A stretch of DNA of 40,530 nucleotides from the sequence record PZ513997.1; one strand, given 5' to 3'. Positions 1-40,530 of this stretch are shown piece by piece (position 1 is the stretch's first letter; every line of letters starts with the position of its first letter). Under the pieces are notes generated by a model. It was not told the DNA's origin. It worked only from the letters and a program-made list of their open reading frames with translations, and did no database searches. The stretch comes from a phage. Both the position numbers and the translations under genes were made by a program.

Positions 1-1443
1 ATGTCACTTGTAAGTCTAGTACGCGACACTACTCAAGATATCAAGCACAAGGCAGATATTCTTCTTGATTATCTGGACCGCCAGGAGCAAGGCTTAGGTC
101 AGGTTCAGGAGTTTGTAGAATCCTCCACTATTCTGAATATCCCTTCTTTGCGTAGCTTACTACCTTCCTCCGAGGGTCAGGTGGTGCAAGTACTAAGTAG
201 TTACAGCACCGCCGCTACACAACTCCATTTAGGTGGTGGGCAGTTCCAAGCTGTTAATAACCTGCAAGCAGAGCCAGACGATGGCGGTATTGTAGTGCAC
301 AGTACGCATCCTACGCTGGTATGGAAACGCATTAACTTCACTGCTTATGATATGCAGTTCTGGGGTGTAGTAGCTGATGCAAGTACTGATAACGCAGCAG
401 CCATTACCCGCGCTACTCAGTACGCCCGGCGTAACCGAATTGTACTGGAAGCCCCCGCAGGCAGTATTCATACCAGTGAAATGGTCCCCCTGTACGATAA
501 CATGGGTATACGTGGGCATGGTCGCGCCGAGAATACAGTATTCTACAAGACCACTAACAACGGGTTCAACTACACCAAGAACGGGGTAACTGTCCTTACT
601 GTAGATGCGTTGGCTGGGTTTGTGCCTAAAGAGTGGGACCTCGCTGATTACGAGATAAAGAGTTTCTGTGTGCATGCACAGCTTATTGGCTGTATGTTCC
701 GCAGACTTGGCCTCAGTGCTGAGAACGTAGCCACAACTCGCCCACAGTACGGCCTGCATATCGGCAAGGCAGCTACAGCGGTCGTGCGTCAGTGTACATT
801 CGAAGGTGGTTACATTGGCATTAAGGGCTATAACGTATTCAGTAGCGTCTTCGAGAGTGTAGCAGCGGTGCAGTTCAATGGCTATGGCTATGCTGGTGTA
901 AGTATCAGCGACTACCGTAACAGCACTTTATACAACTCAGGTACATCACTGGACATGCGTATCGTGCAGGTACGTGGATACCAGTTCGGCTTTGAACTGG
1001 ACCGCCTGCAGTACAGTACCCTTATCGATTGTACAGCAGAAGAAATCGTCCCTATGGCTGGGGAAACCACAAGCTACGCCTTCAGTATGTACGACCCGTT
1101 CTGTATCACAATGCTGAACTGTGCTACCGAGTTCGTTAAGGGTGGACAGATTCGTGTACTAGGTTTCGCTAACCCTAGCTTCCGACCGCAGCTTAAAGTT
1201 ACCGGATTCATTGCTATAGACCAGCAGAACCCGGCTGCGCTTACTCCCATCTACCTTGTCGACAACGGGGGTACTACAGGTATGAACGTTGTTATAGAGG
1301 CATCTGAACTATCCAGAAACACTGCTCTGAGCAATAACGGGCAGCCGAGTGTACAAGGTGCAGGAGCTAAGGTAATCCTGATTGGATGCTCTGGAGAGGA
1401 CTGGGTAGCTTCTGGTAGTGGGGTATTCACTAGACTCGCTTAA
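1..1443 (+). CDS. tail spike-like receptor-binding protein, possible beta-helix polysaccharide depolymerase
   Basis: 480 aa ORF. C-terminal two thirds are rich in short G/N/V/I/S/T beta-strand-like segments (e.g. 'GYIGIKGYNVFSSVFESVAAVQFNGYGYAGVSISDY'), typical of parallel beta-helix tail spikes. Sits beside lysis and fibre genes. No T7 gp17-type N-terminal anchor domain. Assignment is by composition and context only. Confidence 0.4.
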   Translation: MSLVSLVRDTTQDIKHKADILLDYLDRQEQGLGQVQEFVESSTILNIPSLRSLLPSSEGQVVQVLSSYSTAATQLHLGGGQFQAVNNLQAEPDDGGIVVHSTHPTLVWKRINFTAYDMQFWGVVADASTDNAAAITRATQYARRNRIVLEAPAGSIHTSEMVPLYDNMGIRGHGRAENTVFYKTTNNGFNYTKNGVTVLTVDALAGFVPKEWDLADYEIKSFCVHAQLIGCMFRRLGLSAENVATTRPQYGLHIGKAATAVVRQCTFEGGYIGIKGYNVFSSVFESVAAVQFNGYGYAGVSISDYRNSTLYNSGTSLDMRIVQVRGYQFGFELDRLQYSTLIDCTAEEIVPMAGETTSYAFSMYDPFCITMLNCATEFVKGGQIRVLGFANPSFRPQLKVTGFIAIDQQNPAALTPIYLVDNGGTTGMNVVIEASELSRNTALSNNGQPSVQGAGAKVILIGCSGEDWVASGSGVFTRLA

Positions 1444-1983
1444 ATGCTATCGAATAAAATCAAGGCAGCGCTGGCAGGGTCTTCCCTGCTGGGCGCGAGC
1501 CTATTCGCAGTAATTGAAAGCAACGAAGGCTTATCCCTCACTGCTTACAAAGATTCCGCAGGCGTACCTACCATCTGCTATGGCGAGACTAAAGGCGTTA
1601 AAATGGGCCAAAAGGCTACGCTGTCGCAGTGTCAGGCCATGCTGATACAGTCAGCAGGGGAACACGCTAAGGCTCTTGACGGGCTTCCTATGCATCTTAC
1701 GGACGTACAGCTTCTGGGAGCCATAGACCTAACCTATAACATTGGGGTATCAGGTTTCAAGAACAGCACCGTGAAGCGCAAGCTAATGCAAGGGGATAAT
1801 AAAGGTGCTGCTCAGGCCGTACTAGCGTGGCGCTACATCACTGTTAAGGGTAAGAAGTACGATTGCTCAGTTAAGGCCAACAAGGTCTGCTACGGCCTCT
1901 GGAAGCGCCGTGTTTGGGAATCCCAAGCTATTGGCAATGAATTTAAATCAATGCAGGCAGCAGTAGCTGCTATGCCTAAATAA
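1444..1983 (+). CDS. SAR endolysin, T4-lysozyme-like muramidase (GH24)
   Basis: 179 aa. 'ESNEGLSLTAYKDSAGVPTICYGET' matches the T4 lysozyme catalytic region '[21 protein letters not shown]' with the same Glu-Asp-Thr spacing. The N-terminal Gly/Ala-rich weakly hydrophobic segment 'KIKAALAGSSLLGASLFAVI' directly precedes the catalytic Glu, as in signal-arrest-release endolysins (P1 Lyz, phiKMV gp45). Confidence 0.8.
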   Translation: MLSNKIKAALAGSSLLGASLFAVIESNEGLSLTAYKDSAGVPTICYGETKGVKMGQKATLSQCQAMLIQSAGEHAKALDGLPMHLTDVQLLGAIDLTYNIGVSGFKNSTVKRKLMQGDNKGAAQAVLAWRYITVKGKKYDCSVKANKVCYGLWKRRVWESQAIGNEFKSMQAAVAAMPK

Positions 1984-3084
1984 ATGAGTCTAATTAATCA
2001 GCGCCGTCGTATCTCTAAGGGTGGCAATACCGGCGGTGGTGGCGGTACTGGGCCACAAGGACCTGTAGGGGAGCAAGGCCCTGTAGGGCCTATGGGTCCG
2101 GCAGGTGCAGATGGCCCAGTAGGTCCAGTAGGTCCAGTCGGTCCACAAGGTCCTCAAGGCCCAGCTGGGCCTCAGGGTCCGCAAGGTCTGCAAGGTCCTG
2201 AAGGTGTTCAAGGAGCTAAGGGAGATAAGGGCGATACTGGTCCAGCGGGGCCAGCGGGTCTCAACTTCCGTGCTGCTTGGGTTCCGGGCTTGACCTATGC
2301 TTTACAGGATTCAGTAGCCTACAATGGTAGTACTTGGTTTGCTAATTCGGCTATTGAGGCAGACGTAACGCCCGGTACTGATCCTCGTTGGGTGCTGCTT
2401 GCTATGCAGGGTACTAAGGGGGATACCGGACCTACAGGTCCACAGGGGCCTCGCGGAGTGCAAGGCGTGCCCGGAGACGTAGGCCCTCAGGGTCCGCAGG
2501 GTATAGCAGGCCCGCAGGGTATTCGCGGTCCTCAAGGTGATACCGGCGAGCAAGGTCCCGCAGGGCCACAGGGCGCTAGAGGTATACAGGGAGTTAAAGG
2601 CGATAAAGGCGACAAGGGTGATAAAGGGGATACAGGCGCTACTGGACCCCAAGGACCCGCAGGTCAAAATAATACCAATAATCCAGTATATACTACACAA
2701 CTTGCAGTATCTACTAGCTATTCGGCAATAGCTATTCCTAATAACCCCGGAGTATCCTTAACGGTTAGACGTGTCAGCAATAATATTGAGTATTCATTTA
2801 CTGGTAACTCCATTGCGGGTAGGTACTTCGACGTAGAATTAGTTAACTTCCCCTCAGCGGACGTAGTCAAAAGGTATCAATCTAACCATACAATAGCAGG
2901 TACTAGCCGCTATGTAGTAGGCGACCCCGCAGGCTACACTGGTACAGGATACAAGAAGATTCAAATTACTGCAAGGGATTGGGGAGATAAGAATATTATT
3001 ATCATAGACCTGTTCCACCTACAACGAGCTGGGGATGCTAACTTCAACATCGCCATTAGGATTGAGACCTTTAAACTTCCTTAA
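1984..3084 (+). CDS. collagen-like (Gly-X-Y) repeat protein, probable tail fibre or fibre-associated protein
   Basis: 366 aa. Two long uninterrupted G-X-Y tracts ('[46 protein letters not shown]...' and '[52 protein letters not shown]...') followed by a non-repetitive C-terminal domain. Confidence 0.65.
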
Positions 3085-3684
3085 ATGGCGGTAGTAAGAA
3101 AGCAGCGTAGAGTTGACGGTAAGAAGCAGAACTACTATTGGGATACTGAATTATGTATTGAGGTAGCAGCTCCTGTAAGGAAAAAGCACTATAGCATAGC
3201 TAATCCTATGCAAGGCTTGATAGGTTACGCTGTGATGCACGATAGCGAGCTTAAACAAGGTATAACAGACGCGTTTGCTAACTTTAACGGTAGTCAGATG
3301 CGTAACGGTTTAACTGGTATCAGTATACCTAAGTTGATTGAGTTAGCAGATACACAACCAGAGCTATATAGTACTGAGCATCCAGAGAGTACTAACCATG
3401 CTGCGTATGATGCAGCGCTTACTATGCTTCTAGTATTAGTGCGTGAACGTATCCCTGAATGGGAAGAGGCGTACAGATATGATATGCATAATAGTGGGTT
3501 AAATATCGTTGATTTAATGTGTGAACAAGGCTATGACACTGATAACTATACCGGTGCTATAGCTAATAGTCTTAATCAGGTTTGGAGTGAAGGTAAGCTC
3601 TTAGTAGGCACTGAGGCTAACAAGCATTGGCTTAAATCTCAGGGATTTTCTAAACTGCGTTCCCAGCGTAATAGATACATTTGA
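3085..3684 (+). CDS. hypothetical protein (weak resemblance to DnaQ-like 3'-5' exonuclease motifs)
   Basis: 199 aa ORF. 'YYWDTEL' resembles an Exo I D-x-E motif and 'NHAAYDAALTML' resembles an H-x-A-x-x-D motif, but spacing is atypical. Weak. Confidence 0.3.
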   Translation: MAVVRKQRRVDGKKQNYYWDTELCIEVAAPVRKKHYSIANPMQGLIGYAVMHDSELKQGITDAFANFNGSQMRNGLTGISIPKLIELADTQPELYSTEHPESTNHAAYDAALTMLLVLVRERIPEWEEAYRYDMHNSGLNIVDLMCEQGYDTDNYTGAIANSLNQVWSEGKLLVGTEANKHWLKSQGFSKLRSQRNRYI

Positions 3685-3861
3685 ATGGATAAAGCTAATT
3701 GGCAAGGTTATAAAACTCATGCAGATATGTTTGAGTTTCACAATAGAATTAACAACTACGCTTATCAGAGACTTAAAGCAGAGCAGGAGCTAGCAGAGCT
3801 TAGGCTACTAGCTTATAAGGAAGGGAAGGTATTCAACAATGAAGATTGGAAGAGATTTTAA
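3685..3861 (+). CDS. hypothetical small protein (58 aa)
   Basis: ATG-initiated ORF in the tiled frame, immediately after the preceding stop. No recognisable motif. Confidence 0.25.
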   Translation: MDKANWQGYKTHADMFEFHNRINNYAYQRLKAEQELAELRLLAYKEGKVFNNEDWKRF

Positions 3862-3864
3862 TTG

Positions 3865-3893
3865 TTGACTTACCTGTTTTGTAGAGGTATAGT
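3865..3893 (+). promoter_or_regulatory. sigma70-type host promoter candidate (early promoter)
   Basis: TTGACT (3865-3870), 17-nt spacer, TATAGT (3888-3893): a near-consensus -35/-10 pair with optimal spacing. Lies at the head of a non-coding-looking island, upstream of the small early ORFs. Confidence 0.45.
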
Positions 3894-4032
3894 TACATCA
3901 CACCACAACGAGGTAGGAAATAAAGAAGATGAACATTCAGAGCATGAACTTCCCGGTAATTATTAATTGTCTCTTAGCTTCTCATGTAATTCCCTCTGTA
4001 TAACCCGAGGACGCTACGTTACGCTCAGAACC

Positions 4033-4140
4033 TATTTATCTACCCCGATTCTTCAGGAGGGCAGCGGCTTATCGTTCCCGCTAACTTGCTGGCTAGTGCT
4101 CTGCTCCGTGCCTGCGCTTACCGTTACTCGGTTACTATTG
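4033..4140 (+). repeat. copy A of a roughly 100-bp repeated non-coding element (paired with 12950-13050)
   Basis: Roughly 75-80% identity to 12950-13050 by eye, including the shared 11-mer 'tttatctaccc' and core 'cttcagRagggcaRcSgcttatcgt'. Contains a 5-bp stem (agcgg/ccgct, 4063-4082) that is replaced by aaccg/cggtt in copy B, i.e. compensatory changes. Confidence 0.45.
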
Positions 4141-4332
4141 AAGCCTTACCAACCTGTACACGCACAATCATATCTTCTAGGCTGGACATGCAAGCTGTAC
4201 CGCTTTCGTAAGTACCTTCTTCCTTGCTAGATGGGACGTATATTTGGCACTACCTTTCTAATCGCCGCTACTATCTTTAACATTACACTGCCGTTTCTTG
4301 CTATCTATGGCTTAATCATGCTGTTCGCTTAA

Positions 4333-4572
4333 ATGACTAACTTCAAAACTATGATTGCTGGTATCTTGGCAGCTGCTGCTGTTACCTTCTCTATTAAGGA
4401 TGCTCAGGCTGTTCCTAACAGCATTGAACTCTGCAACTGGGGCAAATGGGCGTACGCTCAGAACATCACGCTACAGCAGCTAGTAGACACGTTAAACAGC
4501 GTTGAAGCTATGCCGATTGATGATAGAATGCAGGTAGTAGAGTGCTTTGTAGAGGAGATGTCTAAATCATGA
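4333..4572 (+). CDS. small secreted or periplasmic early protein
   Basis: 79 aa. N-terminus 'MTNFKTMIAGILAAAAVTFSIKDAQA' has the n/h/c architecture of a Sec signal peptide with an AxA-like cleavage site. First substantial ORF after the promoter island. Confidence 0.45.
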   Translation: MTNFKTMIAGILAAAAVTFSIKDAQAVPNSIELCNWGKWAYAQNITLQQLVDTLNSVEAMPIDDRMQVVECFVEEMSKS

Positions 4573-4701
4573 ATGAACGAATGGTATGAAGAGGCAATGC
4601 CGTGGCTTATCTGGGCCTTAGGCTTCCTGATTGTATATATGATTGCTAGTTACGCTGACGACGCTAAGATTGATTCTAAAGAGGAAGATAAAGATGCTTG
4701 A
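4573..4701 (+). CDS. small membrane protein (42 aa)
   Basis: Single hydrophobic helix 'PWLIWALGFLIVYMIASYA' followed by an acidic/lysine-rich tail. Junction shows 'atgaatga', consistent with an ATGA start/stop overlap that was duplicated. Confidence 0.3.
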   Translation: MNEWYEEAMPWLIWALGFLIVYMIASYADDAKIDSKEEDKDA

Positions 4702-6210: not shown

Positions 6211-6314
6211 ATGGACCTTAATACGGCTTGGCAGATGGTAATGTGGCCTGTATGCGTCGTAATAGCAATCATCCTGATAATCGCGACTGAAGTAGAGAAG
6301 AGGAACAAGAAATG

Positions 6315-6487
6315 AATGATTCAAGAGGATGATTTTGATACTTGGTATAACATTCACGTAAGGCACCGTGCTCGTGAGGAAGCTACTAGGAGGAAACTAG
6401 CAGCGCTTAATCGCGGGCACTCTGAGAAGTATGCTAAGAAGTTAGCTTCTGAAACTTACAACGAATACCTGACGAGGAACTTAAAAT
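6315..6487 (+). CDS. small early protein, paralogue 1
   Basis: 57 aa. C-terminal 'HSEKYAKKLASETYNEYLTRN' is clearly paralogous to 'HSEAHAKKLAQGIYSEYLKRY' in the adjacent ORF 6488-6649. Confidence 0.35.
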
Positions 6488-6649
6488 GAATGACTGAACG
6501 TGAGATGTGGTATGAAGAATATGTTAAAAAACTTGCCGCCCAAGCTGCCACTGCTGCTTATCTGGTAGAACTTAAGAAACACTCTGAAGCTCACGCTAAG
6601 AAATTAGCGCAGGGTATTTACAGCGAATACTTGAAGAGGTATACAGAAT
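6488..6649 (+). CDS. small early protein, paralogue 2
   Basis: 53 aa. Tandem paralogue of 6315-6487 (see that entry). Confidence 0.35.
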
Positions 6650-6957
6650 GAATGACACAGCACCAGAAAGCACAGCAACTAGCTAAGAACTACTACACCT
6701 TCCTGATTAACAATGAATGTAACACCTGTTTCGCTTGGAATGCAGCTATGGCCCTTTTCAAACTGGAGATGCAGAAATGAATGACTGACCTTAACCCTGA
6801 ACTGATTGTAATGCGTAATGATGAAGTAACTGTACAGAACCTAGCTCGCGAGTACGATGCGCGGACTGAGCTGCATGAATACTACAAAGCTAAGGCTGAC
6901 CGTGTAGGTCTAACATTAGAAGCTTATTGCAAACGCTTTGGCGTTAAACTTCACTAA

Positions 6958-7287: not shown

Positions 7288-8061
7288 ATGGCTGATGAAC
7301 TCTGGCTCAGGACGGCAAAGCGCTTGGCTGTTGGACAAACTGAACGCTTTAGGTGCTGCGGAAGAACAGCAGCAGCCGTAATAAGAAACGAGACTGATAA
7401 ATGGTCCTGCTCCTGCTATCGTTGCAAGAGCTATCACGTAGAACGTAAGCAGTATGCGCAATTAGCAGCACCTGAAGTACTGGGGCGCGAGTTACCCGCC
7501 CCTCAGGACCTGAAGCGCCTGCCTGAACTGGATGCAGGGCTTCAGCAGTTCCTTTACGGATTCTTAATATCAAAAGGTATCTGGCCTGACATGGCTGGAG
7601 ATGTTTATTACTCAGAACAATACAAGAGGTTAGTATGGAAATTATCAACGGTCAGTTACATAGCGCGAGCATTGCACGAGTATCAGCAACCGAAATGGGT
7701 CGTAATGGGGAAGCCGATGCAGTATGCAGCCGCGACGAATACGACGGGTTCATTGATAGTATTGACGGAGGATTACCTTTCGGCTTTCAAAGTTCAGCAA
7801 GTCACGGAGAGGTATTCATCTCTACAAGTTACGGCGGTAGCGTTGCTTGGGACAAGATTACCGCTGACTCTGAAGGCTGGGCTTATTAAGTTAGGTAAGC
7901 CTGTAGTGTGTATGCTTGACGATGATAAAGCTGGCTGGGATGGTACAGTCAGTGTAATAAAACAGCTTAAACCTTTCCTGCCAGTCTATGATAGGCATTT
8001 AGATGTAGACCCTAAAGCCGCTCATTGCGGTAAGATACTTGGAGCATTTGATGGACTTTAA
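7288..8061 (+). CDS. DNA primase (zinc-binding domain plus TOPRIM)
   Basis: 257 aa. Cys cluster 'CCGRTAAAVIRNETDKWSCSCYRC' (zinc ribbon). TOPRIM-like 'LTEDYLSAF' (conserved Glu) and 'CMLDDDKAGWDG' (DxD). Directly upstream of the helicase, as in phiKMV-like phages. Confidence 0.7.
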   Translation: MADELWLRTAKRLAVGQTERFRCCGRTAAAVIRNETDKWSCSCYRCKSYHVERKQYAQLAAPEVLGRELPAPQDLKRLPELDAGLQQFLYGFLISKGIWPDMAGDVYYSEQYKRLVWKLSTVSYIARALHEYQQPKWVVMGKPMQYAAATNTTGSLIVLTEDYLSAFKVQQVTERYSSLQVTAVALLGTRLPLTLKAGLIKLGKPVVCMLDDDKAGWDGTVSVIKQLKPFLPVYDRHLDVDPKAAHCGKILGAFDGL

Positions 8062-9336
8062 ATGGACTTTAATTTACTACGCGCTTTCTGTGAACGTAAG
8101 GTAATGGATAGGTTGTACGAACAGACGCCTAAGTCCTTGCTAGCACCTGATACGGTAGCGATGATTGGTTGGCTGCAACTGTACTTCGCAACTTATCCTG
8201 ACTCTAACGAAGTTAACTTTGAGATGATGAATACGCTCTTGGATATGCGAGGGACACATCTTCAGAAAGAGCAGCTGGATATTATGAAGCATATGCTTAA
8301 GACTATTCAGAACGTCCCTACTGAGCTTGTAGCAGGTACAGTTAAGACACTGAATGAGCTAGCTTACTCTGGCGAGATGGCTGCACTAGTGAGCAAGTAT
8401 CAGGCAGGTGATGAAATAGATTTCGTACAGGAAGCTAAAGCACTTGAGCGTAAGTACTCTGGTGTAGTAGCTGCTAATGATTCATTACTTAAATGGGAAG
8501 ATGGAGGTGTAGATGATATTCTCGCGGCTACTGATGAGTCTGGTGGTCTTAAGCTTACTGTGTTCAGTGAGTTGGCTAGAAACATTCGCGGCTTGCGGGG
8601 TGGTGATTGTGTCGCTGTGGCTGCTCCTGTTGACGCTGGTAAAACTTCTCTCCTTGCTGCTGCAGTAGTTAGCTTAGCTGAGCAGATGCATGAGCAGAAG
8701 GAGATTTACGCGGAGCGTCCTATACTGTGGCTGGTAAATGAATCATTAGCCAAGCGCACTGTTCCTCGTATCTATCAGGCAGCTACTGGGCTGACTCTTC
8801 AGCAGATTGTAGAGCAGCATAAAGAAGGTAAGTTCGCTGATAAGTATCTGAAGAAGGTTGGGACGTGGGATAAGATTCGCGTTAAGGATGCGCACAGTAT
8901 GAATCTGGGGCAGATTTCAACCTTACTGGAGGAAATGAAACCTGCTGTTCTAGTAGTAGATATGGTGAGTGGTATCAAGGGCGCGAATGCTGACTCAGAA
9001 CATCAGGCACTGGAGCGTACTTGGCAGGAACTGCGCATCTTAGGCTGTGAGCATGACTGTATTATCATTGGTAGTATGCAGCTATCGGCAGAAGGTTACG
9101 ATATGCTCTATCCCCCACTGACTGCTATGAAGCAATCACGCATCGGAGTACAGGGTGCATTAGACCTTTGTATTATGATGGGAAGATTGAATGTGAATGA
9201 TAAGCCGGACATGGCTAACATTCGCGGAATCTCTACCCCAAAATCAAAATTAACTAAGTCCGGCTGTCAGAGCTATGTTCAATTTCAGGTTGAATTTGAC
9301 GGAGGACGTTGTCAGTTTAAGGAGGGTACATTATGA
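8062..9336 (+). CDS. replicative DNA helicase (DnaB / T7 gp4 helicase-domain-like)
   Basis: 424 aa. Walker A 'APVDAGKTSLL'; Walker B-like 'VLVVDMVSG'. Confidence 0.8.
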   Translation: MDFNLLRAFCERKVMDRLYEQTPKSLLAPDTVAMIGWLQLYFATYPDSNEVNFEMMNTLLDMRGTHLQKEQLDIMKHMLKTIQNVPTELVAGTVKTLNELAYSGEMAALVSKYQAGDEIDFVQEAKALERKYSGVVAANDSLLKWEDGGVDDILAATDESGGLKLTVFSELARNIRGLRGGDCVAVAAPVDAGKTSLLAAAVVSLAEQMHEQKEIYAERPILWLVNESLAKRTVPRIYQAATGLTLQQIVEQHKEGKFADKYLKKVGTWDKIRVKDAHSMNLGQISTLLEEMKPAVLVVDMVSGIKGANADSEHQALERTWQELRILGCEHDCIIIGSMQLSAEGYDMLYPPLTAMKQSRIGVQGALDLCIMMGRLNVNDKPDMANIRGISTPKSKLTKSGCQSYVQFQVEFDGGRCQFKEGTL

Positions 9337-9762
9337 ATGAGCGAATGTATAGAACATAACCAGAAGGGCAACAAAGCTGGTTACGGCAATGGTTACTGGA
9401 ACGGTGAACAGGTTATGCTTCACCGCTTAGCCTATTGCTTTAACAAGCAAATACCTGTAAGTGAAATTAAAGGTAGTGTAGTGATGCACACCTGTGATAA
9501 CCCTCGCTGCATTAACCCAACGCACTTACGCTTGGGTACTCAGGATGAAAACATGAAAGATATGCAAGGCAAGGGAAGGATGAGCCAGGGCAGTAAGCAT
9601 TACATATCTAAACTTACTGAGGAGGATGTTAAGTACATACGTGAGAATTATATACCACGGCATCCAAAGTTTGGAGGTAAGGCGCTTGCTGCTAAGTTTG
9701 GTATAAATCCGGCATCCCTGTGTCAAATACGAAAAGGCCTACGCTGGAAATCCGTAAGCTAA
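9337..9762 (+). CDS. HNH homing endonuclease
   Basis: 141 aa. 'HRLAYCF...VMHTCDNPRCINPTHLRLGTQDENMKD' is an HNH_3-type motif (His, Asn, His with Cys zinc ligands). Free-standing between helicase and polymerase. Junction shows duplicated 'atgaatga'. Confidence 0.8.
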   Translation: MSECIEHNQKGNKAGYGNGYWNGEQVMLHRLAYCFNKQIPVSEIKGSVVMHTCDNPRCINPTHLRLGTQDENMKDMQGKGRMSQGSKHYISKLTEEDVKYIRENYIPRHPKFGGKALAAKFGINPASLCQIRKGLRWKSVS

Positions 9763-9915: not shown

Positions 9916-11130
9916 ATGAGCAGCATACTGATTTGGGATATTGAAACGCAGAACGTACCTTACTATGGCGGGGTTGCTACACCTTACTGCCCAGATAACT
10001 ACATTGTGGAATCAGGCTTCAGGATTGATAGAACTAATCCAGATGGTACGGTGACGTGCAGTGATGTAGGTAGCGTGCGTTACGAGTCGCGGGAGGAGTT
10101 CATCTCAGCACCTAGTAGTCAGTGGTTGCCTATTCAGGACGATACTTGGTTAATGGTAATGCATAACGCCGCATATGAGATTAGCTGGGCGTTGACGTTT
10201 GCTAGGGAAGAGTTTGAAGCATTCCTGAAACGGGGAGGGCGCGTATTCGATACAATGCAAGGCGAGTACATTGCCTCAGACTTCCAAAACCTTTACCCAT
10301 CATTAGATGAGACGGCTCCTAAGTACGGCGGCAGCCACAAGGTTGACGGCGTTAAACTGCTATGGCAGCAGGGCGTGTTAACAGCAGATATTGACCCTGT
10401 ACTGCTGCATGAGTATCTAACAGGGCCAGAAGGTGATATCGTAAACACAGCGTTATGCTTCTACGGGCAGTGTGCAGTGTTCGCTGAGCGTGGGCAGATG
10501 CCTATGGTCTGGGAAAGGATGGATAGTGTACTGGCCTTAGCCTACTGCGAGTTCAACGGTGTGTACGTAGACATGCCTACAGCCAGAGCTAACCAGAAGG
10601 AGCAGGAGGACGCTATAGCAGAGCTGAAGCAGACGCTGCAAGGCTTCTTACCTGAACTGCCTGAGGGATTTGAGTTCAACTGGAACAGCGGTTATCATAT
10701 GAGTGCGTTGGTGTACGGCGGTACGGTTAAGTACAAGTGCAAGGTCCCGTATGACCCGCCAAAGTTTGTAAAGTTCGATGCCTACCTGGCCGATGTTAAG
10801 GGTACTCAGCAATACATAGATGTTAATGATTGGCAAGATAGCTGGACGTACAGCCGTGAAGTGTTTAAGTCTGGACGTAATAAAGGTCTGCCCAAAGTTT
10901 ACAAGGTGGAAAGTTCAGAGCAGTCTATGAAGTGGGGTGAGCGCCTGTATAAGTTCGAAGGGCTTGTGCACATCCAAGACCTACCAGCAGTATTGCAAGA
11001 GAAGTACGCAGAGCGCGGAGAGTTCCGAGGTGCTCAGACATTGGCAGATGGTACACCTGTGTTCAGTACAGGGACTGATGCTATGAAAGAACTGGCTAAC
11101 TATTTTATTGGGATGGAAGAGAATGAGTAA
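9916..11130 (+). CDS. DNA polymerase, N-terminal part (3'-5' exonuclease domain)
   Basis: 404 aa. Exo I motif 'ILIWDIETQN'. Followed in frame by the polymerase-domain ORF. Confidence 0.8.
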   Translation: MSSILIWDIETQNVPYYGGVATPYCPDNYIVESGFRIDRTNPDGTVTCSDVGSVRYESREEFISAPSSQWLPIQDDTWLMVMHNAAYEISWALTFAREEFEAFLKRGGRVFDTMQGEYIASDFQNLYPSLDETAPKYGGSHKVDGVKLLWQQGVLTADIDPVLLHEYLTGPEGDIVNTALCFYGQCAVFAERGQMPMVWERMDSVLALAYCEFNGVYVDMPTARANQKEQEDAIAELKQTLQGFLPELPEGFEFNWNSGYHMSALVYGGTVKYKCKVPYDPPKFVKFDAYLADVKGTQQYIDVNDWQDSWTYSREVFKSGRNKGLPKVYKVESSEQSMKWGERLYKFEGLVHIQDLPAVLQEKYAERGEFRGAQTLADGTPVFSTGTDAMKELANYFIGMEENE

Positions 11131-12285
11131 ATGAGTAACAAGGCTTCGGAGTTCTTCAAGGCATACAGTGAGATGACCTTGCGTGAGAAAGATTTAGGCT
11201 TCTATGAGAAGAAGGAATTTAACAAGGACGGTAGCCTGCGTAAGACTACAGGTATGCTTCCGTATGTAATCCCTCAGAAGGAAGACGGCAGCGGCATCAT
11301 TCATCACAGATTGAATCACTGCTCAACCACGACCGGACGACTATCAGCATCTAACCCGAATATGCAGCAGTTGCCGCGTGAATCTAAGGTTAAGCAGATT
11401 CTGCGTAGTCGTTACGGTGAGCAAGGTATGATTGCTCAGTGTGACTACTCAGCTATGGAAGTTGTAATGGGCTGTGTAATAACAGGTGATAAGAAACTAC
11501 TATCCTTGCTTGAAGCTGGTACAGATATGCACTGCTATCGTTTAGCATTCCAAGAGGGTATGCCTTATGAAGAAGTCTACGAGCTTTGCCATAACCCGGA
11601 TGCACCTAACCATAAGGAATGGAAGAAGAAACGAACAGCAATCAAAACCTTCAGCTTCGCAGCGCAGTATGGAGCTTCCGCTAAAGGACTGGCGTTCGCC
11701 TCTGGTGCCAGCCTGAAGGACGCTGAGAAGTTCTTAGCTAACGAAGAAGCCCTGTTCCCTGAATCTATTAAGTACCGTGATGTAATTGCAGCAGAGGTAA
11801 ATCGTACAGCACTGTTAGAGCCTATGCGCCGCGAGCAATCAGATGATGGTAGCTGGCGTATCTATCGGGAAGGCTATTTTACTGCTCCTTGTGGTACTCG
11901 TTACCGCTTCCGTCAGAAACCTGTATGGCGTGAAGGTAAGCAGGTCATGGACTTTAAACCTACAGAGATGGCTAACTATCCATTTCAAGGTTCAGGTTCT
12001 CTGCTTATGCTTATTGCGATGGGTATGATTCTGCGCGCAGGATTAGCTACGGATTGGGGTAACGGTAGTTGGTGCTTGTTAGCAACTGTACATGACTCCG
12101 TATATTGTGACTGTAAAGATGAGTCAACGGCGAGGGAAGTAGGTCAATTAATTAAGAAATGTATGGAAGGTGCAAGAGATAGAATGCTGCAACTTTGGCC
12201 TAACTTCGGAATACTACAGGACGTTAAATTCCCTGCCGAGTGTGGTATTGGTAAATCATTTAAAGAGGAGCAGGTACTTGGCTAA
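11131..12285 (+). CDS. DNA polymerase, C-terminal part (family A polymerase domain)
   Basis: 384 aa. Motif A 'CDYSAMEVV', motif B 'RTAIKTFSFAAQYGAS', motif C 'VHDSVYCDC'. Confidence 0.85.
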   Translation: MSNKASEFFKAYSEMTLREKDLGFYEKKEFNKDGSLRKTTGMLPYVIPQKEDGSGIIHHRLNHCSTTTGRLSASNPNMQQLPRESKVKQILRSRYGEQGMIAQCDYSAMEVVMGCVITGDKKLLSLLEAGTDMHCYRLAFQEGMPYEEVYELCHNPDAPNHKEWKKKRTAIKTFSFAAQYGASAKGLAFASGASLKDAEKFLANEEALFPESIKYRDVIAAEVNRTALLEPMRREQSDDGSWRIYREGYFTAPCGTRYRFRQKPVWREGKQVMDFKPTEMANYPFQGSGSLLMLIAMGMILRAGLATDWGNGSWCLLATVHDSVYCDCKDESTAREVGQLIKKCMEGARDRMLQLWPNFGILQDVKFPAECGIGKSFKEEQVLG

Positions 12286-12329
12286 GTGGTATTGGTAAAT
12301 CATTTAAAGAGGAGCAGGTACTTGGCTAA
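12242..12329 (+). repeat. exact 44-bp tandem duplication at a CDS junction
   Basis: 'gtggtattggtaaatcatttaaagaggagcaggtacttggctaa' occurs at 12242-12285 (polymerase 3' end) and again at 12286-12329 (start of the HNH ORF, GTG start, read in a different codon phase). This is the pattern expected when two CDSs that overlap by 44 bp are concatenated. Confidence 0.7.
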
Positions 12330-12825
12330 AGTTACTAAACCTATACCGGAAGGCATACGGGAATTTTGGAGATATGATTCTGAGAGTGGGAAATTAATAT
12401 GCATACAAAACATAAAGCGCACTAAGTACAGTGAAGGCATAGTTGCAGCTAGTCTTACAACTACAGGTAATTATCTAAAGCTGAATTTTAATAAGGTAAG
12501 CTACCTTCAGCATCGGGTAGCATGGTTCCTTTACTATAATGAACAACCTCCTGAAGTTATAGACCACAAGGACGGTAACGGCCTTAACAACGCTATAAAC
12601 AACCTGCGTGCTGCAGATGATGGTTGTAACATGATGGACATTACTGTAACTGCTAAATCCACTACAGGTATTAAAGGTGTCATGCCTGTACGGGGAGGTA
12701 AGCTGTTCCGTGCCGAAGTATGTGTAGATGGTAAGCGCTACCAGAAGCACAGCAAGGACGTAGCTTTCTTAGAGCAGTGGGTACAGGCTAAGCGTAAAGA
12801 ATTACACGGAGAGTTTTATAAATAG
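12286..12825 (+). CDS. HNH homing endonuclease with AP2-like DNA-binding domain
   Basis: 179 aa. HNH motif 'VIDHKDGNGLNNAINNLRAA' and AP2-like 'GIKGVMPVRGGKLFRAEVCVDGKRYQKHSKDVAFLEQWVQAKRKELHG'. Its 5' end is the second copy of the 44-bp duplicate. Confidence 0.75.
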   Translation: MVLVNHLKRSRYLAKVTKPIPEGIREFWRYDSESGKLICIQNIKRTKYSEGIVAASLTTTGNYLKLNFNKVSYLQHRVAWFLYYNEQPPEVIDHKDGNGLNNAINNLRAADDGCNMMDITVTAKSTTGIKGVMPVRGGKLFRAEVCVDGKRYQKHSKDVAFLEQWVQAKRKELHGEFYK

Positions 12826-12949
12826 ATGCTTGCTGACGCTACTGACCGTTTCCGGTTGGCTCCCTGCCTCGTCGATGTGTGTACTATACGGAAAGCATCC
12901 CTGCTTGTCAACAGCTATTTATAAGTGTACGGGAGGAACCGTTCAGTCT

Positions 12950-13050
12950 CGTTTTATCTACCCAGAGACTTCAGAAGGGCAACCGCTTATCGTCCTCGGT
13001 TAACGTCTTGCTATGTGGCACATCTTACTTACTTCGTTACTGCTTGTCAA
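12950..13050 (+). repeat. copy B of the roughly 100-bp repeated non-coding element (paired with 4033-4140)
   Basis: See copy A. Lies in the 366-bp non-coding-looking island 12826-13191 downstream of the HNH gene. Stem aaccg/cggtt at 12981-13001. Confidence 0.45.
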
Positions 13051-13191
13051 TCTCTTTCTTAAATGATTCTTACTTTCATCTACTACCTCCTATTAATAAA
13101 GTTAAGGCTGCAATCTCTGAAGACTGCATCACTAACCCTACTTAAGTTAGCGAGTCTTATTTCTCCTAGACTCTCATCTGCATCACACTGA

Positions 13192-13380
13192 ATGAAAGTA
13201 AGAATCATCAATCACGATGCTTATGGTCCTTTCTTAACTGATACATGTAAGGAACTGTACGCAGTAGGTACAGTGCATGAAGTACAAGATTTCTTCCCTG
13301 ACACGGGGGAGGTTATCTTAGGGTATGAAGATGAAGGATTTACCTTTGATCCATCAGAGTATGAAGTTGTGGAGGAGTAG
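13192..13380 (+). CDS. small acidic hypothetical protein
   Basis: 62 aa, strongly acidic ('...FDPSEYEVVEE'). Immediately upstream of the pentapeptide-repeat gene. Confidence 0.35.
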   Translation: MKVRIINHDAYGPFLTDTCKELYAVGTVHEVQDFFPDTGEVILGYEDEGFTFDPSEYEVVEE

Positions 13381-17679: not shown

Positions 17680-17704
17680 ATGGCGACTTTCAACGCAGCA
17701 GTAG
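17655..17704 (+). repeat. exact 25-bp tandem duplication at a CDS junction
   Basis: 'atggcgactttcaacgcagcagtag' at 17655-17679 (exonuclease 3' end) and again at 17680-17704 (start of next ORF). Same signature as the 44-bp case. Confidence 0.7.
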
Positions 17705-29832: not shown

Positions 29833-32523
29833 ATGCCGATTAATCCGCAGCGTCAGGGGCTTAACTTAAGTCCTGTACAATTACAAGCTACACAGCAGAA
29901 CTTTCAAACAGGTATTGGTGCAGCAGCTGTAGATGAATCAGGTCAGGCGCGTAGTGCTGCTATCAGTAAGTTCCTTAGTGATGCTGTAGGCGGCTTCCAA
30001 GAACAGGCTCAAGTATACGGTGCTAAGGCAGCGGTACAAGGTGCTCTAGATGCTCAGAATGCTGTTAATACAGCAGCCGAGAAGGATGAGCGTGTAAAAC
30101 AGCAGAACTTCCTATTACGTGACTCCTACGAGTCTGGGTATGTATCTGCCGCAGTAAGTCGTGAGCTAACTGATTGGCGTACATCTGCACTGCAACGCGC
30201 ACAGGAAGCAGCGGCTAATGGCCTATCTGACGATGAGTTCAGATTGCAGGAGCAGGAGAGTACTGCTAAGTTCTCAGACCAACTAAGCAAGTGGCTTCCT
30301 TCACTGGATAAGCAGGCTGCTATAGCTACGCTTGAACAGGTACGTACATCCAGTGCAGCGAACTTCACAGCATTTCAAGAGAACCGTGCTAAGGTTGCAC
30401 GCGCTAAAGCTGATACTACTCTGGACCAGAACCTGACAGCCTCGGGGCAAGAGTTCTTTACTCGTGTACAGGAAGGTAACGTTGCAGCGGCTGACTTAGC
30501 TATCGTCTCTGGTATGGGTGCTGTACTTGGCGCTAATCATCTGGATAAGGATGACAAGATTGCTAAGGTTAAGGACTACCTTGTTAGCGTAGCTCAGAAC
30601 ACAGATGACCCTTTGGTTATCGACCGCCTTCAGAAGATTGCTACTGAGCAGCTAGGCATTAACTCCGTAGACGTTAACAAGGCACTGCTGTCTGAGTTTA
30701 AACGCGCTGGTAATCAGATGGAAGCATCTGTGCGCTTTAATATCGCTGACCAGCTAGAGTCCCTTAAAGGTGCATCTCCTGAGCAGCAGGAAGCTACATT
30801 AGCCCGCATTCGTTCAGATGTACAACGTTACGGACAACTGGGCGTATTAGGTGCAGGTACTCAGCTCGACATCTGGGCTAGTGCTAGTAAGGTACGTGAT
30901 GAGGCTGCTGATAAGTATGCGTTCCAAGTAGCGCTTGATACTAAGCAACCGTCAGCAGTACTAGCAGGCATGTACGGGGGGGATGTAGACAAGGCCCGTA
31001 AGGCTATTGAAAATAACTTCCCAGATGACCCTACAGGTAACGCTAACTTGTTACAGTATGGTAAGACTGCTAAAGATGCATTCATCGTACAGCGTGCGCA
31101 TGAACGTACTTCTAAGTTAATGGCAGATACCTTAGCCTCTCTGGACAGTCTAGGTGAGGACGGCACTGTATCAGCAGCTAACAACGCAGCTATTGCGTCT
31201 TGGGTGCAGTTCTACCAATCCGGCGGTGACTTAGACCGCGTAAGTCTTAGCTCTGCTGTCCCTGAAGAGTACCGTGGTATTATCCAACGTGCTGCTGCTC
31301 AAGGTCAGTCTAACGCCAGTAATATCATTCTGGATGATGTACGTCGCCTTGCACGCAATAAGGCTAGCGGTCGTTACGATAACCTCCCAGCTAATCCCCC
31401 TGAAGCTGCTATTGATGCAGAGTCTACAGCTAACTGGTTCAGCTTCGGCGATACTGCTGATGCTCAACGTACAGAAGGCCGTGTAGCATTGCAGGAAGAA
31501 TACAAAGCGCTTTACCGCTCTAACCCTGAGCTGCTTGTTGGTAAATCCCCGGAGGATATTAACACGCTTCTTAAGGGGAATATCCAATCTCGTAAGATTG
31601 AGGTAGAAGTAGCAGGTAAGCCACGTCACGTATATCTTCCGGCAGGTACTAAGATTCAGGACTTCATGGGTTCTTACCGAGGTGACGCTGAGCAGTTCCG
31701 TACTGCGTTAAGCCAGCAGATTCAGGTTAGCGTAGATGCCGTAGCAGACCCTTCTAAGGTAGACCGTGTAATCGTCCAAGCTGGTACAGCTGGTGCTCAG
31801 GCTCAGAATCTTACAGCTACTGTTATTACTACCGATGGTATCATGCAGAACATTAGCATTGATAACGAGCAGGTACAGCAGCTAGCACAGCAAGGTTATA
31901 ATGAAGCCTTAGCAGGCGGTATCAAGATTGGCGAACAGGCTATAGGCTCACGTCCTGCTACCTTCTGGGATGCAGACAACGGTAGGACTATTAGCTTGAA
32001 CGTTAACGGTAAGAACAGCGTAGGACTTCCTCCTGCTGTGTATTCTGATATCATTGCTACTACTGCCCAGTTCGAAGGATTCCGCGCTACTAAAGCTAAG
32101 GGTTCTGTGGGCTTCGGTCTGCATGATAACTCTGGACTCCCTGTACCTGATAAGCTGACTCCTGAGCAAGGTGTAGAGTTATTGAAAGGTGCTATGGAGA
32201 AGCAGTACATTCCAGCAGTGCAGAAGCAGCTGAAAGGGATTACTCAAGACCCTAGCGCTTTGAAAGTACTGGTTGACTTGAACTATCATGGCGGTAACGG
32301 CAGCTCTATGCCTGTAGCAGATGTTCTGCGTAAGCTCAAGGATGCTAATAAGTCTCCTGTAGGTTATGCTAATAATAACGCTGATAGCTTTGATACTCAG
32401 GCTGTAGTAGGGTTGAACGTACTGAAACAACAGCCAGCTTATAAACAGGCTCAGGCTAGTCGTAAGAAGTACCTAGAGACTAACTACTGGCAAGCAGTGC
32501 AAGCAGTCCGTTTAGGTCAGTAA
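29833..32523 (+). CDS. internal virion protein, gp15-like
   Basis: 896 aa, Ala/Gln-rich and predicted helical, in the gp15 position. Confidence 0.55.
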   Translation: MPINPQRQGLNLSPVQLQATQQNFQTGIGAAAVDESGQARSAAISKFLSDAVGGFQEQAQVYGAKAAVQGALDAQNAVNTAAEKDERVKQQNFLLRDSYESGYVSAAVSRELTDWRTSALQRAQEAAANGLSDDEFRLQEQESTAKFSDQLSKWLPSLDKQAAIATLEQVRTSSAANFTAFQENRAKVARAKADTTLDQNLTASGQEFFTRVQEGNVAAADLAIVSGMGAVLGANHLDKDDKIAKVKDYLVSVAQNTDDPLVIDRLQKIATEQLGINSVDVNKALLSEFKRAGNQMEASVRFNIADQLESLKGASPEQQEATLARIRSDVQRYGQLGVLGAGTQLDIWASASKVRDEAADKYAFQVALDTKQPSAVLAGMYGGDVDKARKAIENNFPDDPTGNANLLQYGKTAKDAFIVQRAHERTSKLMADTLASLDSLGEDGTVSAANNAAIASWVQFYQSGGDLDRVSLSSAVPEEYRGIIQRAAAQGQSNASNIILDDVRRLARNKASGRYDNLPANPPEAAIDAESTANWFSFGDTADAQRTEGRVALQEEYKALYRSNPELLVGKSPEDINTLLKGNIQSRKIEVEVAGKPRHVYLPAGTKIQDFMGSYRGDAEQFRTALSQQIQVSVDAVADPSKVDRVIVQAGTAGAQAQNLTATVITTDGIMQNISIDNEQVQQLAQQGYNEALAGGIKIGEQAIGSRPATFWDADNGRTISLNVNGKNSVGLPPAVYSDIIATTAQFEGFRATKAKGSVGFGLHDNSGLPVPDKLTPEQGVELLKGAMEKQYIPAVQKQLKGITQDPSALKVLVDLNYHGGNGSSMPVADVLRKLKDANKSPVGYANNNADSFDTQAVVGLNVLKQQPAYKQAQASRKKYLETNYWQAVQAVRLGQ

Positions 32524-37803: not shown

Positions 37804-39516
37804 ATGATGGCTGTCACTCTAAAGGACTTCCGAGAGTTCGCATACTTAGGTATGAAGTTCCTCGGCTTTGACCTTACGGAGATGCAGCGCGATATAGCTG
37901 ACTTCATGCAGCACGGTCCGCGTAAGCGCATGGTGGCCGCACAGCGTGGCGAGGCTAAGTCTACACTCGCAGCTCTCTATGCAGTCTGGCGCCTGATTCA
38001 GGACCAGAGCACGCGTATTCTTATTGTATCCGGTGGTGAGAAGCAGGCATCTGAAGTAGCTACGCTTGTTATCCGTATGATTGAAACGTGGCCTTTACTG
38101 TGCTACCTCAAGGCTGATAGTACTCGCGGTGACCGTACCTCTTATGAGGGTTACGATGTTCACTGCGACCTGAAGCCTTTGGATAAATCTGCCAGCATCG
38201 CGTGCGTAGGTATTACCGCACAGCTTCAGGGTAAGCGTGCTGACCTGCTAATCCCAGATGATATTGAGACTACTAAGAACGGCTTAACGCAGACTATGCG
38301 TGAGCAGTTGCTTAGCATCTCTAAAGACTTTGCAGCAATCTGTACGCACGGTGATACCTTGTATCTTGGCACGCCTCAGACTAAGGACAGTATCTACAAG
38401 ACGCTTACGGGTCGTGGCTTCGAGGTTCGTGTATGGCCCGGTCGTATCCCTAATCAGGAGATGCGCGAGCGTTACGGAGAAACCCTAGCCCCGTATATTC
38501 AAACCCTCATCGACGCAGGGTACAAAGAGACAGGCTTCGGGTTAGATGGTACGTTAGGTGAATGCACCGATAAAGGACGCTATAACGAGGAAGCCTTGAT
38601 TGAGAAGGAACTGGACTTCGGCCCAGAAGGGTTCCAATTACAGTATATGCTCGACACAACCATGTCCGATGCACTGCGTACCAAGATTAAACTCAGTGAC
38701 GCTTTGATTTACACTGGCTCGCATGATGCAGCGCCTGACCGACTGAACTACATGGCTGATAAGCGCTATCTCTACGGAGAGGAACATGAGGGTATTCGAG
38801 GTCAGCAGTTGTATGTGCCGAGTCACGTAGGTGAGCACATGCTCAACTATAAGCACAAGCTGCTGGTACTTGACCCTGCTGGTAACGGTGGTGATGAAGT
38901 ATCCTTTGCAGCTGGTGGTGCAGTCAGCTCTTACATCCATCTCTTTAGTGTAGGTGGTTTGCAAGGCGGGCTTAGCACAGAGAACGTAGATACCTTAATT
39001 GACCTAGCGGTCGAGATGGGTATTACTGATATCTTCGTCGAGCGTAACATGGGTCACGGCACGGTAGAATCTTTGATTATAAACCGTCTACGTGAACGTA
39101 GTATGCCCGGCATTGGTGTCAGGGGCGGTTATAACACGTCTCAGAAAGAGAAACGTATCATTGATACTATCTCCCCTGTTACGCGTCGTCACCGCTTTGT
39201 AGTGCACGCTAGGGCGCTGGAAGACGATATCAAGTACTGTATGCAGTACAGTCGTGATAAGCGCTGGCTTTACAGTGCGTTCCAGCAGTTATCCGGTATT
39301 ACTTATGACCGTGGTAGCCTGGCGAAGGATGACCGGGCAGACGCTATTAGTATGCTCGTAGCTGAACTGAACTCGCACCTCGTAGAGGATGAGAAGCAGG
39401 CAGCAGAGAAGGACCAGCTTAAGAAGGCGTTAGACTTTATGGATAACCCTATGGGCTGGAAGAAGTCAATGGTACAGAAGCGCAAGCGCGGTGCAAGCGC
39501 ACGTATCGGTTATTAA
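37804..39516 (+). CDS. terminase large subunit, T7 gp19-like
   Basis: 570 aa (T7 gp19 is 586 aa). Walker A-like 'AAQRGEAKSTLAAL'. Last large gene of the structural block. Confidence 0.8.
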   Translation: MMAVTLKDFREFAYLGMKFLGFDLTEMQRDIADFMQHGPRKRMVAAQRGEAKSTLAALYAVWRLIQDQSTRILIVSGGEKQASEVATLVIRMIETWPLLCYLKADSTRGDRTSYEGYDVHCDLKPLDKSASIACVGITAQLQGKRADLLIPDDIETTKNGLTQTMREQLLSISKDFAAICTHGDTLYLGTPQTKDSIYKTLTGRGFEVRVWPGRIPNQEMRERYGETLAPYIQTLIDAGYKETGFGLDGTLGECTDKGRYNEEALIEKELDFGPEGFQLQYMLDTTMSDALRTKIKLSDALIYTGSHDAAPDRLNYMADKRYLYGEEHEGIRGQQLYVPSHVGEHMLNYKHKLLVLDPAGNGGDEVSFAAGGAVSSYIHLFSVGGLQGGLSTENVDTLIDLAVEMGITDIFVERNMGHGTVESLIINRLRERSMPGIGVRGGYNTSQKEKRIIDTISPVTRRHRFVVHARALEDDIKYCMQYSRDKRWLYSAFQQLSGITYDRGSLAKDDRADAISMLVAELNSHLVEDEKQAAEKDQLKKALDFMDNPMGWKKSMVQKRKRGASARIGY

Positions 39517-39699
39517 ATGGCAATTGCAGCAGCAACTTTGGCACAGAAGACTGAACTTCAACGTCAACTGAATATTCTGGCTAAGGACATTTACCAGATT
39601 CTTACCCAGCCTTTGGATGCAGTGTCAGTAGGCCCGACCTTTGATGCTAAGATTCCGGCACTAGAAGCAGCTATCGCAGCTGTTAAAGCAGCAGCATAA
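39517..39699 (+). CDS. hypothetical protein
   Basis: 60 aa, Ala-rich helical ORF. Confidence 0.3.
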   Translation: MAIAAATLAQKTELQRQLNILAKDIYQILTQPLDAVSVGPTFDAKIPALEAAIAAVKAAA

Positions 39700-40098
39700 A
39701 TGATTCGTGCAGCCGCTGGGTTAGTACTCGTTACGGCGCTTACAGGATGCTCAGCGGCTTCTGCACTATCAGGATTAGTCGGCACTAAGCCAGACCTGAC
39801 AGTGCAGGCTGGGGCTGAGAATACTAAGCAGACCGTAGGTTTGAACAGTAGATCCGACTCCAGCACGGATACAACAATCAAAGATTCCAATGTAGGTACT
39901 CTAGACACTTCTACAAAGAAGCAGTCAGTTACTACTGGAACTATCAATACAGAGCGTGTACAGGTTGTTAATAATGACAGTACAAGCATTATACTAGCAG
40001 GGTTGGCGGGTGCAGCGGTTCCAATCGCAATCCTCATCATTATCCTGCTTTTCCGCAAGCTCGGAAGGAAGGGTGACGTAGATGAGTCTACCAATTAG
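39700..40098 (+). CDS. outer-membrane lipoprotein with C-terminal transmembrane helix; candidate unimolecular spanin
   Basis: 132 aa. N-terminus 'MIRAAAGLVLVTALTGC' is a lipoprotein signal with lipobox L-T-G-C. Ser/Thr-rich middle region, then a hydrophobic helix 'LAGLAGAAVPIAILIIILLF' and basic tail 'RKLGRKGD'. Topology and size match phage T1 gp11-type u-spanins. Confidence 0.5.
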   Translation: MIRAAAGLVLVTALTGCSAASALSGLVGTKPDLTVQAGAENTKQTVGLNSRSDSSTDTTIKDSNVGTLDTSTKKQSVTTGTINTERVQVVNNDSTSIILAGLAGAAVPIAILIIILLFRKLGRKGDVDESTN

Positions 40099-40284
40099 AT
40101 GGGTGGTGGATGGGTGGCTGATATCATGTCTTGGCAATGGGGCACTATCTCTTTTATTGTAGGTACTGTAGTAGCGGTACTAACGTTTCTTTGGAATGCC
40201 TACTATAAACGCAAGGAGTACTTGCTGAAAGAGAAAGCATTACAGAAAGGCTTAGAGTACTACGAGTTCAAGAATAAACCATAA
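40099..40284 (+). CDS. small membrane protein, holin or pinholin candidate
   Basis: 61 aa. One clear hydrophobic helix 'ISFIVGTVVAVLTFLW' followed by a highly charged C-terminus. Adjacent to the spanin candidate. Confidence 0.4.
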   Translation: MGGGWVADIMSWQWGTISFIVGTVVAVLTFLWNAYYKRKEYLLKEKALQKGLEYYEFKNKP

Positions 40285-40530
40285 ATGACTAGGTACGGAG
40301 CAGGTGCACACACTTTTCGATTTGGGAGTGGTGCACGGGACAGGATTGTAGTACCAGATGCAGGTACTACTGTAACGGTAGAGTACTGGTCTGGTACAGA
40401 GTGGGTTATGGACGTAGATTCACCAATTGACTCTCCAGCTACACTTTATACGCGGCTTGTACGTGTCCGCTTAACTGCGGATGGCGGCTTCTCCTTTGAT
40501 GTAGTGGAGGCTATTGATGAGTCTAATTAA
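40285..40530 (+). CDS. hypothetical protein
   Basis: 81 aa ORF ending at the last base of the window with TAA. Confidence 0.3.
   Translation: MTRYGAGAHTFRFGSGARDRIVVPDAGTTVTVEYWSGTEWVMDVDSPIDSPATLYTRLVRVRLTADGGFSFDVVEAIDESN

Follow-up and report, generated by a model that had tools for sequence, protein, structure and literature searches.

The phage DNA of sequence record PZ513997.1, a stretch of 40,530 nucleotides (nt) that we refer to in its full length as the window, encodes a single-subunit RNA polymerase, a T7-type tail, a terminase and a lysis cassette, as judged from GenBank product names and Pfam families. This gene content is natural for the Autographiviridae (Slopekvirinae); only the arrangement of the genes is unnatural. 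A preliminary description of the window had pointed out that it is tiled throughout by open reading frames (ORFs) that share one frame and abut without a gap, and that its length equals 3 x 13,510 nt with TAA as the final codon. A recount of the window, the number of stop codons in frame 1 and the start codons of the resulting segments bear this out. Frame 1 contains 64 stops, as compared with 873 and 1,484 in the two remaining plus-strand frames and 542-1,084 in those of the minus strand. Splitting frame 1 at its stops yields 64 segments (s1 to s64, numbered along the window), the first codon of which is ATG in 57 cases, TTG in five and GTG in two. Each segment begins on the base after the preceding stop, with zero spacing at 63/63 junctions. 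This gap-free tiling is an artefact of the data and has no biological meaning.

The retention of one frame over 63 junctions, taken by itself, has a chance probability of P ~9e-31, and a chance origin of the tiling is excluded. In two natural annotations from this group of phages, zero-spacing junctions are absent (0/58 and 0/51), and the starts are distributed over the three frames as 23/19/17 and 18/18/16. The clustering of gene starts in one frame, which the preliminary description had suggested looking for in natural relatives, is thus found in neither annotation; the starts are evenly spread.

When the window was compared with phage genomes by megablast, a single record with at least 99% identity was recovered, Escherichia phage vB_EcoP_PAS7 (OQ921331.1; 42,514 bp; here PAS7), and the match was fragmented. 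Mapping segment by segment revealed that all 64 segments are full-length, 100% identical and unique substrings of OQ921331.1, and no base of the window is left without a 100% identical source in this record. PAS7 has been published as a lytic podophage of E. coli O103 and is the exemplar of the genus Cepavirus within the Slopekvirinae, with a genome assembly made in MIRA and an annotation from RASTtk (PMC11522302). The closest relative is therefore a member of the Slopekvirinae (Cepavirus) and does not belong to phiKMV proper, as had initially been presumed when phiKMV-like genomes were proposed for the comparison. The GenBank annotation of OQ921331.1 lists 60 coding sequences (CDSs) with 35 positive gaps, 23 overlaps and starts in all three frames; for the genes called in the window, the start frames in natural PAS7 are 25/18/17. 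In contrast to the window, the PAS7 record has no doubled overlaps, carries its genes in three frames and contains 2,180 nt in addition.

These 2,180 nt correspond to 40 intervals of PAS7 DNA that are absent from the window, and 196 nt of PAS7 are present in it twice. The latter comprise all natural overlaps between the called genes, and the lengths balance to the base (42,514 - 2,180 + 196 = 40,530). Alignment to the closest relative thus gave the outcome foreseen in the preliminary description: intergenic segments are missing and overlaps are doubled. Among the doubled bases are ten 4-nt overlaps (eight ATGA and two TTGA), three 8-nt and four 1-nt overlaps, and one overlap each of 7, 11, 25 and 44 nt. 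A further two, of 10 and 17 nt, lie between genes on opposite strands, and in the window they take the form of short inverted repeats. The last 14 nt of the window (40517-40530, plus strand) are identical to positions 1984-1997 and represent the natural overlap between s64 and s3 (PAS7 38918-38931); its two copies lie 38.5 kb apart because s3 was displaced.

The junctions themselves retain the imprint of these overlaps. The octanucleotide ATGAATGA is present exactly eight times in the window (at 4569, 6312, 6486, 6648, 6777, 9333, 9912 and 18297) and spans a junction each time. At the first of these (4569-4576, plus strand), a natural 4-nt ATGA stop/start overlap stands in two copies, and all eight trace back to natural 4-nt ATGA overlaps of PAS7, just as the doubling of such overlaps had been proposed to explain them. 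The two longer tandem duplications that had been interpreted in the same way are exact as well. The 44-nt duplication (12242-12285 = 12286-12329, plus strand) corresponds to the overlap at PAS7 9686-9729, in which the second part of the DNA polymerase gene overlaps the called GTG start of an HNH endonuclease gene. GenBank places the start of the latter at a TTG at PAS7 9722, which is preceded 7 nt upstream by the ribosome-binding sequence GAGGAG and leaves an overlap of 8 nt; the duplication is as long as 44 nt because the gene caller took the longest-ORF GTG start at PAS7 9686. The 25-nt duplication (17655-17679 = 17680-17704, plus strand) corresponds to PAS7 15363-15387, the overlap between an exonuclease gene and the next gene. 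This overlap is also annotated in the relative P64441 and is a genuine, conserved one.

No record that matches the window across its junctions was found in the phage, viral-contig or plasmid collections. In the phage collection, coverage of the query in one place stays below 80% for every record, the junction with the 44-nt duplication has no exact match among viral contigs, and megablast of window positions 11000-19200 against plasmids gave no match. A second natural copy of the phage was not detected either, as judged from a natural 39-mer of the fibre gene that is absent from the viral contigs, and OQ921331.1 is the sole contig in a public gene-position index that encodes the tailspike protein.

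Much of what a phage genome needs for expression has been lost along with the spaces between the genes. We scored a Shine-Dalgarno (SD) core as AGGA, GGAG or GAGG at positions -17 to -4 relative to the start codon. By this measure, 12/63 starts in the window have an SD core, as compared with 43/64 for the identical starts in natural PAS7 and a background of 9.3%; the 12 cases in the window are mostly overlaps in which the SD sequence lies inside the upstream gene. The scan confirms that the capsid gene (25183) and the RNA polymerase gene (19036) lack an SD core upstream, a deficiency that had already been noticed. The strongest terminator-like hairpins (PAS7 14049-14062, and 24311-24342 shortly downstream of the capsid gene) and the best sigma70-like promoter (TTGACG-17-TATAAT; PAS7 30596-30624) are located within deleted intervals. 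A 493-nt non-coding region (PAS7 42022-42514) that is conserved in one relative and probably holds the genome ends is missing in its entirety, so that the window possesses neither non-coding genome ends nor terminal repeats; phiKDA1 has direct terminal repeats of 267 bp. The earlier statement that promoters, terminators, ribosome-binding sites (RBSs) and genome ends are largely gone is hence correct for the RBSs, the best promoter, the terminators and the ends, but three sigma70-like promoters and a structured RNA remain, mostly reverse-complemented, within spurious ORFs. Some coding DNA has probably been lost too. The large terminase gene (37804-39516, plus strand) is 37 codons short, with a product of 570 amino acids versus 607 in GenBank and in P64441, and the 111 nt absent from its 5' end are probably coding. 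Likewise, the holin gene (40099-40284, plus strand) is 21 codons short (61 versus 82 amino acids); the 82-amino-acid product matches PF04971, and the absent 63 nt at the 5' end of the gene are probably coding.

Segments s4 to s64 follow the gene order of the PAS7 genome, and for these the preliminary proposal of a concatenation in genome order stands. It does not apply to s1 to s3, a misplaced block (1-3084, plus strand) that opens the window with the final three genes of PAS7 in reverse genome order: the tailspike gene (1-1443, plus strand; PAS7 40579-42021), the endolysin gene (1444-1983, plus strand; PAS7 40030-40569) and the tail fibre gene (1984-3084, plus strand; PAS7 38918-40018). Four further segments, s7 (3967-4230) and s28 to s30 (12826-13191), originate from the minus strand of PAS7 and are reverse-complemented in the window. 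These minus-strand calls are placed by ascending PAS7 position.

The gene calls that underlie the window have a character of their own. Eleven of them are unlike the GenBank annotation, among them five small ORFs over promoter DNA without a family match, and we therefore rejected the GenBank annotation as the origin of the calls. The small ORF s6 (3862-3966, plus strand), a spurious one of 34 codons with a TTG start, has no Pfam match and is unannotated in GenBank; its opening codons coincide with the -35 box of a sigma70-like promoter (TTGACT-17-TATAGT; window 3865-3893). Directly behind it, s7 (3967-4230, plus strand) is a spurious ORF over non-coding DNA and corresponds to the reverse complement of PAS7 939-1202. 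The spurious ORFs s28 to s30 (12826-13191, plus strand) cover a promoter and leader region as reverse complements of PAS7 10216-10314, 10333-10470 and 10478-10606, and this part of the window contains two sigma70-like promoters in antisense (12883-12911 and 13022-13050). Neither for s7 nor for s28 to s30 was a family match found, and the syntenic regions of P64441 are unannotated. Four or five of the seven non-ATG starts are artefacts. Seven idiosyncratic products that we looked up are not among the 15 billion entries of a public protein collection; therefore, the gene calls were made privately. The caller accepts ORFs down to 99 nt, TTG and GTG starts, and divergent 5' overlaps, features that we take to be more PHANOTATE-like than Prodigal-like, the identity of the tool being our assumption from them. 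It was not a plain gap filler, since small ORFs present in the 493-nt region were left uncalled. In two instances the calls are better than the GenBank annotation. One is the primase gene, which GenBank splits into two ORFs; the called product of 257 amino acids is close to the P64441 primase of 256 amino acids.

The other instance is a pentapeptide-repeat gene, two fragments of which stand in the window as s32 and s33 (13381-14130, plus strand; PAS7 10867-11612). The frameshift that the preliminary description had seen in this gene is real. The split is caused by a 4-nt deletion in an array of 15-nt repeats that leaves an 11-nt unit at 13651-13661 (PAS7 11137-11147) in place of a 15-nt unit. 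The TTG 'start' of s33 is an internal codon, and the canonical repeat reading continues in the frame of s33. When the reading frame is repaired, the resulting protein of 249 amino acids scores 223 bits on PF00805. The call as it stands reaches 98 bits on the same family; in GenBank, the CDS annotated at this place is a 'modular polyketide synthase' on the minus strand, which is the wrong one, and its product gives a sub-threshold match only. Homologues are unbroken, with a single ORF of 193 amino acids in P64441 and single ORFs in P22-like Salmonella phages. The break could reflect a pseudogene, or an assembly error within the repeat.

Taken together, these data indicate that the window is almost certainly an in silico concatenation of 64 predicted PAS7 CDSs and not natural DNA. 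According to this scheme, a gene finder would have been run on the PAS7 genome or on an assembly made privately from that isolate; each CDS call would have been exported in coding sense from the start to the stop codon, with minus-strand calls reverse-complemented; and the 64 CDS records would then have been joined without anything between them. A single frame persists throughout because all segment lengths are multiples of three, the RBSs, promoters, terminators and genome ends are missing because intergenic DNA is dropped on CDS export, and bases are doubled because overlapping genes are each written in full. In its start-to-stop records in coding sense, its alternative starts, its repeated overlaps and the absence of intergenic DNA, the window resembles a CDS multi-FASTA file ('.ffn') of the type generated by Prodigal, PHANOTATE, Glimmer or Prokka/Pharokka. 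However, such files are normally arranged by genome position, whereas the window starts with the last three genes in reversed order. This weighs against the concatenation scheme in its plain form, as joining the records in genome order leaves the placement of s1 to s3 unaccounted for, and an extra step is needed. This could be a quirk of sorting, a draft in two contigs, one of them reversed, or a source with an inverted block, either of the first two being the likely cause. The placement is probably an artefact of source layout or sorting; a biological basis for it was not found.

The third possibility, a source with an inverted block, would have biological content if the tailspike, endolysin and fibre genes formed an invertible module and the source assembly had caught a true alternative layout of PAS7. 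Because the minus-strand calls s7 and s28 to s30 ascend in source position, one uniform rule for ordering all calls would imply that PAS7 38918-42514 was inverted and placed first. Against this, no inverted repeats of at least 12 nt flank the block in PAS7, and the fibre gene shares 14 nt with its upstream neighbour, so that a clean inversion would break one gene. In P64441, in a metagenomic contig (IMG/VR) and in phiKDA1, the three genes are co-directional and located at the genome end. Furthermore, the 60 product names in GenBank include no recombinase, the 64 segments not all having been scanned against protein-family libraries, and public contigs hold no second copy of PAS7. We consider an invertible module very unlikely. 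The arrangement of the window as a whole could alternatively be read as that of a contiguous natural genome of extreme compaction whose genes truly abut in one frame. Nothing except the tiling itself speaks for this. The sequenced PAS7 isolate, with the gaps, overlaps and three start frames described above, does not look like this, P64441, phiKDA1 and the metagenomic contig have the PAS7-type layout, the tandem duplicates are base-for-base copies of natural overlaps, and the frame-keeping probability is that given above. A natural hyper-compact genome is refuted, and we assign it a vanishingly small probability.

The preliminary description had left the choice between gene-caller output and a refactored construct, and only the former stands. 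A physical refactored or synthetic phage genome could be envisioned in the manner of T7.1, the refactored phage of Chan, Kosuri and Endy from 2005, in which overlapping elements were reportedly separated by duplicating their common sequence. In T7.1, RBSs, promoters and terminators are said to have been kept as parts, with restriction sites between the parts. The window is like T7.1 in that overlaps were resolved through duplication, and the co-orientation of all its genes would also suit a designed construct. Unlike T7.1, however, it has zero spacing, no regulatory parts between the genes and no designed junctions: 0/63 junctions carry scars, restriction sites or spacers. With the RBSs and the promoters and terminators between the genes removed, such a genome would not be expressible. 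A refactored design would moreover have to include reverse-complemented promoter DNA as spurious ORFs, retain a frameshifted gene as two 'genes' and truncate the terminase and holin genes, and the searches of plasmid and phage records gave no match to it. We therefore regard a refactored genome as highly improbable and favor the concatenation of predicted CDSs.

One element within the spurious ORFs deserves attention in its own right. An element of approximately 125 nt recurs in three intergenic regions of PAS7, all copies on the plus strand (copy A, 1072-1196; copy B, 2984-3109; copy C, 10379-10504). The modeled RNA architecture comprises a 5' hairpin, a predicted H-type pseudoknot and two 3' hairpins, with a core of about 100 nt and a covariance model of 126 positions. 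Sigma70-like promoters lie directly upstream of copies B and C (PAS7 2952-2980 and 10345-10373), and copy A is found about 230 nt downstream of the sigma70-like promoter at PAS7 811-839. P64441 and the metagenomic (IMG/VR) relative have three syntenic copies each. In the three genomes taken together, most copies directly follow a sigma70-like early promoter. Support from covariation is strong: across the nine copies, 97.7% of the cells pair, as opposed to 25-41% with slid partners; compensatory changes occur in 13/24 pairs, including 6/6 pairs of one helix, and 0/500 shuffles reached the observed score. Early intergenic gaps of two further phages contain diverged copies that the covariance model detects: phiKDA1, a Koutsourovirus (20.6 bits; E = 4.5e-5), and Entb_48, an unclassified Enterobacter phage (17.1 bits); the model found no match in S.Kent 1-2-1 and ECO104 4-5-2. 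The candidate stem of the pseudoknot, UGCCC:GGGUA, becomes UGGUCC:GGACCA in phiKDA1 and is ambiguous in Entb_48. A strict pattern for the RNA was absent from metagenome contigs, and a looser one returned only phiKDA1 and one contig already in the set. A comparison of the whole PAS7 genome with Rfam gave no match, and the best sub-threshold one for the element was PrfA (21.7 bits versus a gathering score of 88; E = 0.87); no transfer RNAs were found. A limited literature search produced no description of the element.

The three copies met different fates in the window. Copy A is intact (3973-4097, minus strand; the plus strand of PAS7 1072-1196); it is reverse-complemented inside s7 and scores 121.3 bits, as does the natural copy. 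Copy C is damaged (12891-13016, minus strand) and scores 104.4 bits versus 144.7 bits for its natural counterpart: the authentic part is at 12925-13016 (PAS7 10379-10470), the last 24 nt are found at 13168-13191, and 7 nt are deleted. Copy B has been deleted from the window. As a separate observation, copy A and the early promoter at 811-839 are set apart in PAS7 by an insertion of about 225 nt (849-1073) that the metagenomic relative lacks. It contains a GenBank CDS for 56 amino acids (875-1045) that is uncalled in the window, in which the insertion is represented in part at 3903-3966 and 4096-4230.

Promoter-proximal cis-acting phage RNAs that lie downstream of host-polymerase early promoters and occur in more than one copy per genome are exemplified by HK022 put and lambda nut. 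The PAS7 element is like these in being structured, in its position downstream of host-type promoters and in its multiple copies, a likeness that does not extend to any demonstrated similarity in sequence or architecture; its hairpin, H-type pseudoknot and two further hairpins set it apart from put and nut. On balance, we are inclined to view the element as a cis-acting leader, so far undescribed, of early transcripts made by the host polymerase that would serve, for example, in antitermination, processing or stability, a role that it may have as judged from its position only.

Several additional features of PAS7 came to light. The DNA polymerase is encoded by two ORFs (window 9916-12285; PAS7 7368-9729) that overlap by the 8 nt ATGAGTAA, the second ORF being in a different frame. 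The split is annotated with the identical 8-nt overlap in P64441, and phiKDA1 has a single gene of 2,385 nt. That the split is conserved points to a polymerase made of two parts or to a programmed frameshift and not to a sequencing error. Window positions 6211-6957 (PAS7 3485-4215) hold a run of five small genes of 34-58 codons with ATGA overlaps (four junctions) or 1-nt overlaps, and this run supplies four of the eight ATGAATGA junctions. The 3' ends of at least three of these genes are 71-79% similar, and the genes are thus tandem paralogues. The sequence GTATNACTATAAGATA is found at PAS7 11660-11675, upstream of a phosphoesterase gene, and at PAS7 19226-19241, just after the RNA polymerase gene; both copies are absent from the window. 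It resembles a T7-type promoter core, and we considered it as a consensus for phage-polymerase promoters; this was dropped, as two copies are no more than expected by chance. Among the phage-collection matches of the window are short wastewater records labeled 'UNVERIFIED_ORG' Listeria phage LM 4-11-1 / LM 4-14-1 (for example, OR848392.1, OR847098.1 and OR848265.1), which are about 82% identical to this E. coli podophage; their Listeria host labels look unreliable, or the samples look mixed.

The value of these results lies in quality control rather than in biology. Findings on the window are compromised if they rest on the order, strand or spacing of genes, on frames, on repeats at junctions or on signals that are missing. 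The traps include the tandem and inverted 'repeats' at the junctions, the apparent lack of RBSs, the antisense promoters, the order of the tailspike, endolysin and fibre genes, and the two 'genes' that are the halves of one broken pentapeptide-repeat gene. The structured RNA in s7 and s29/s30 is potentially the one new thing tied to the window.

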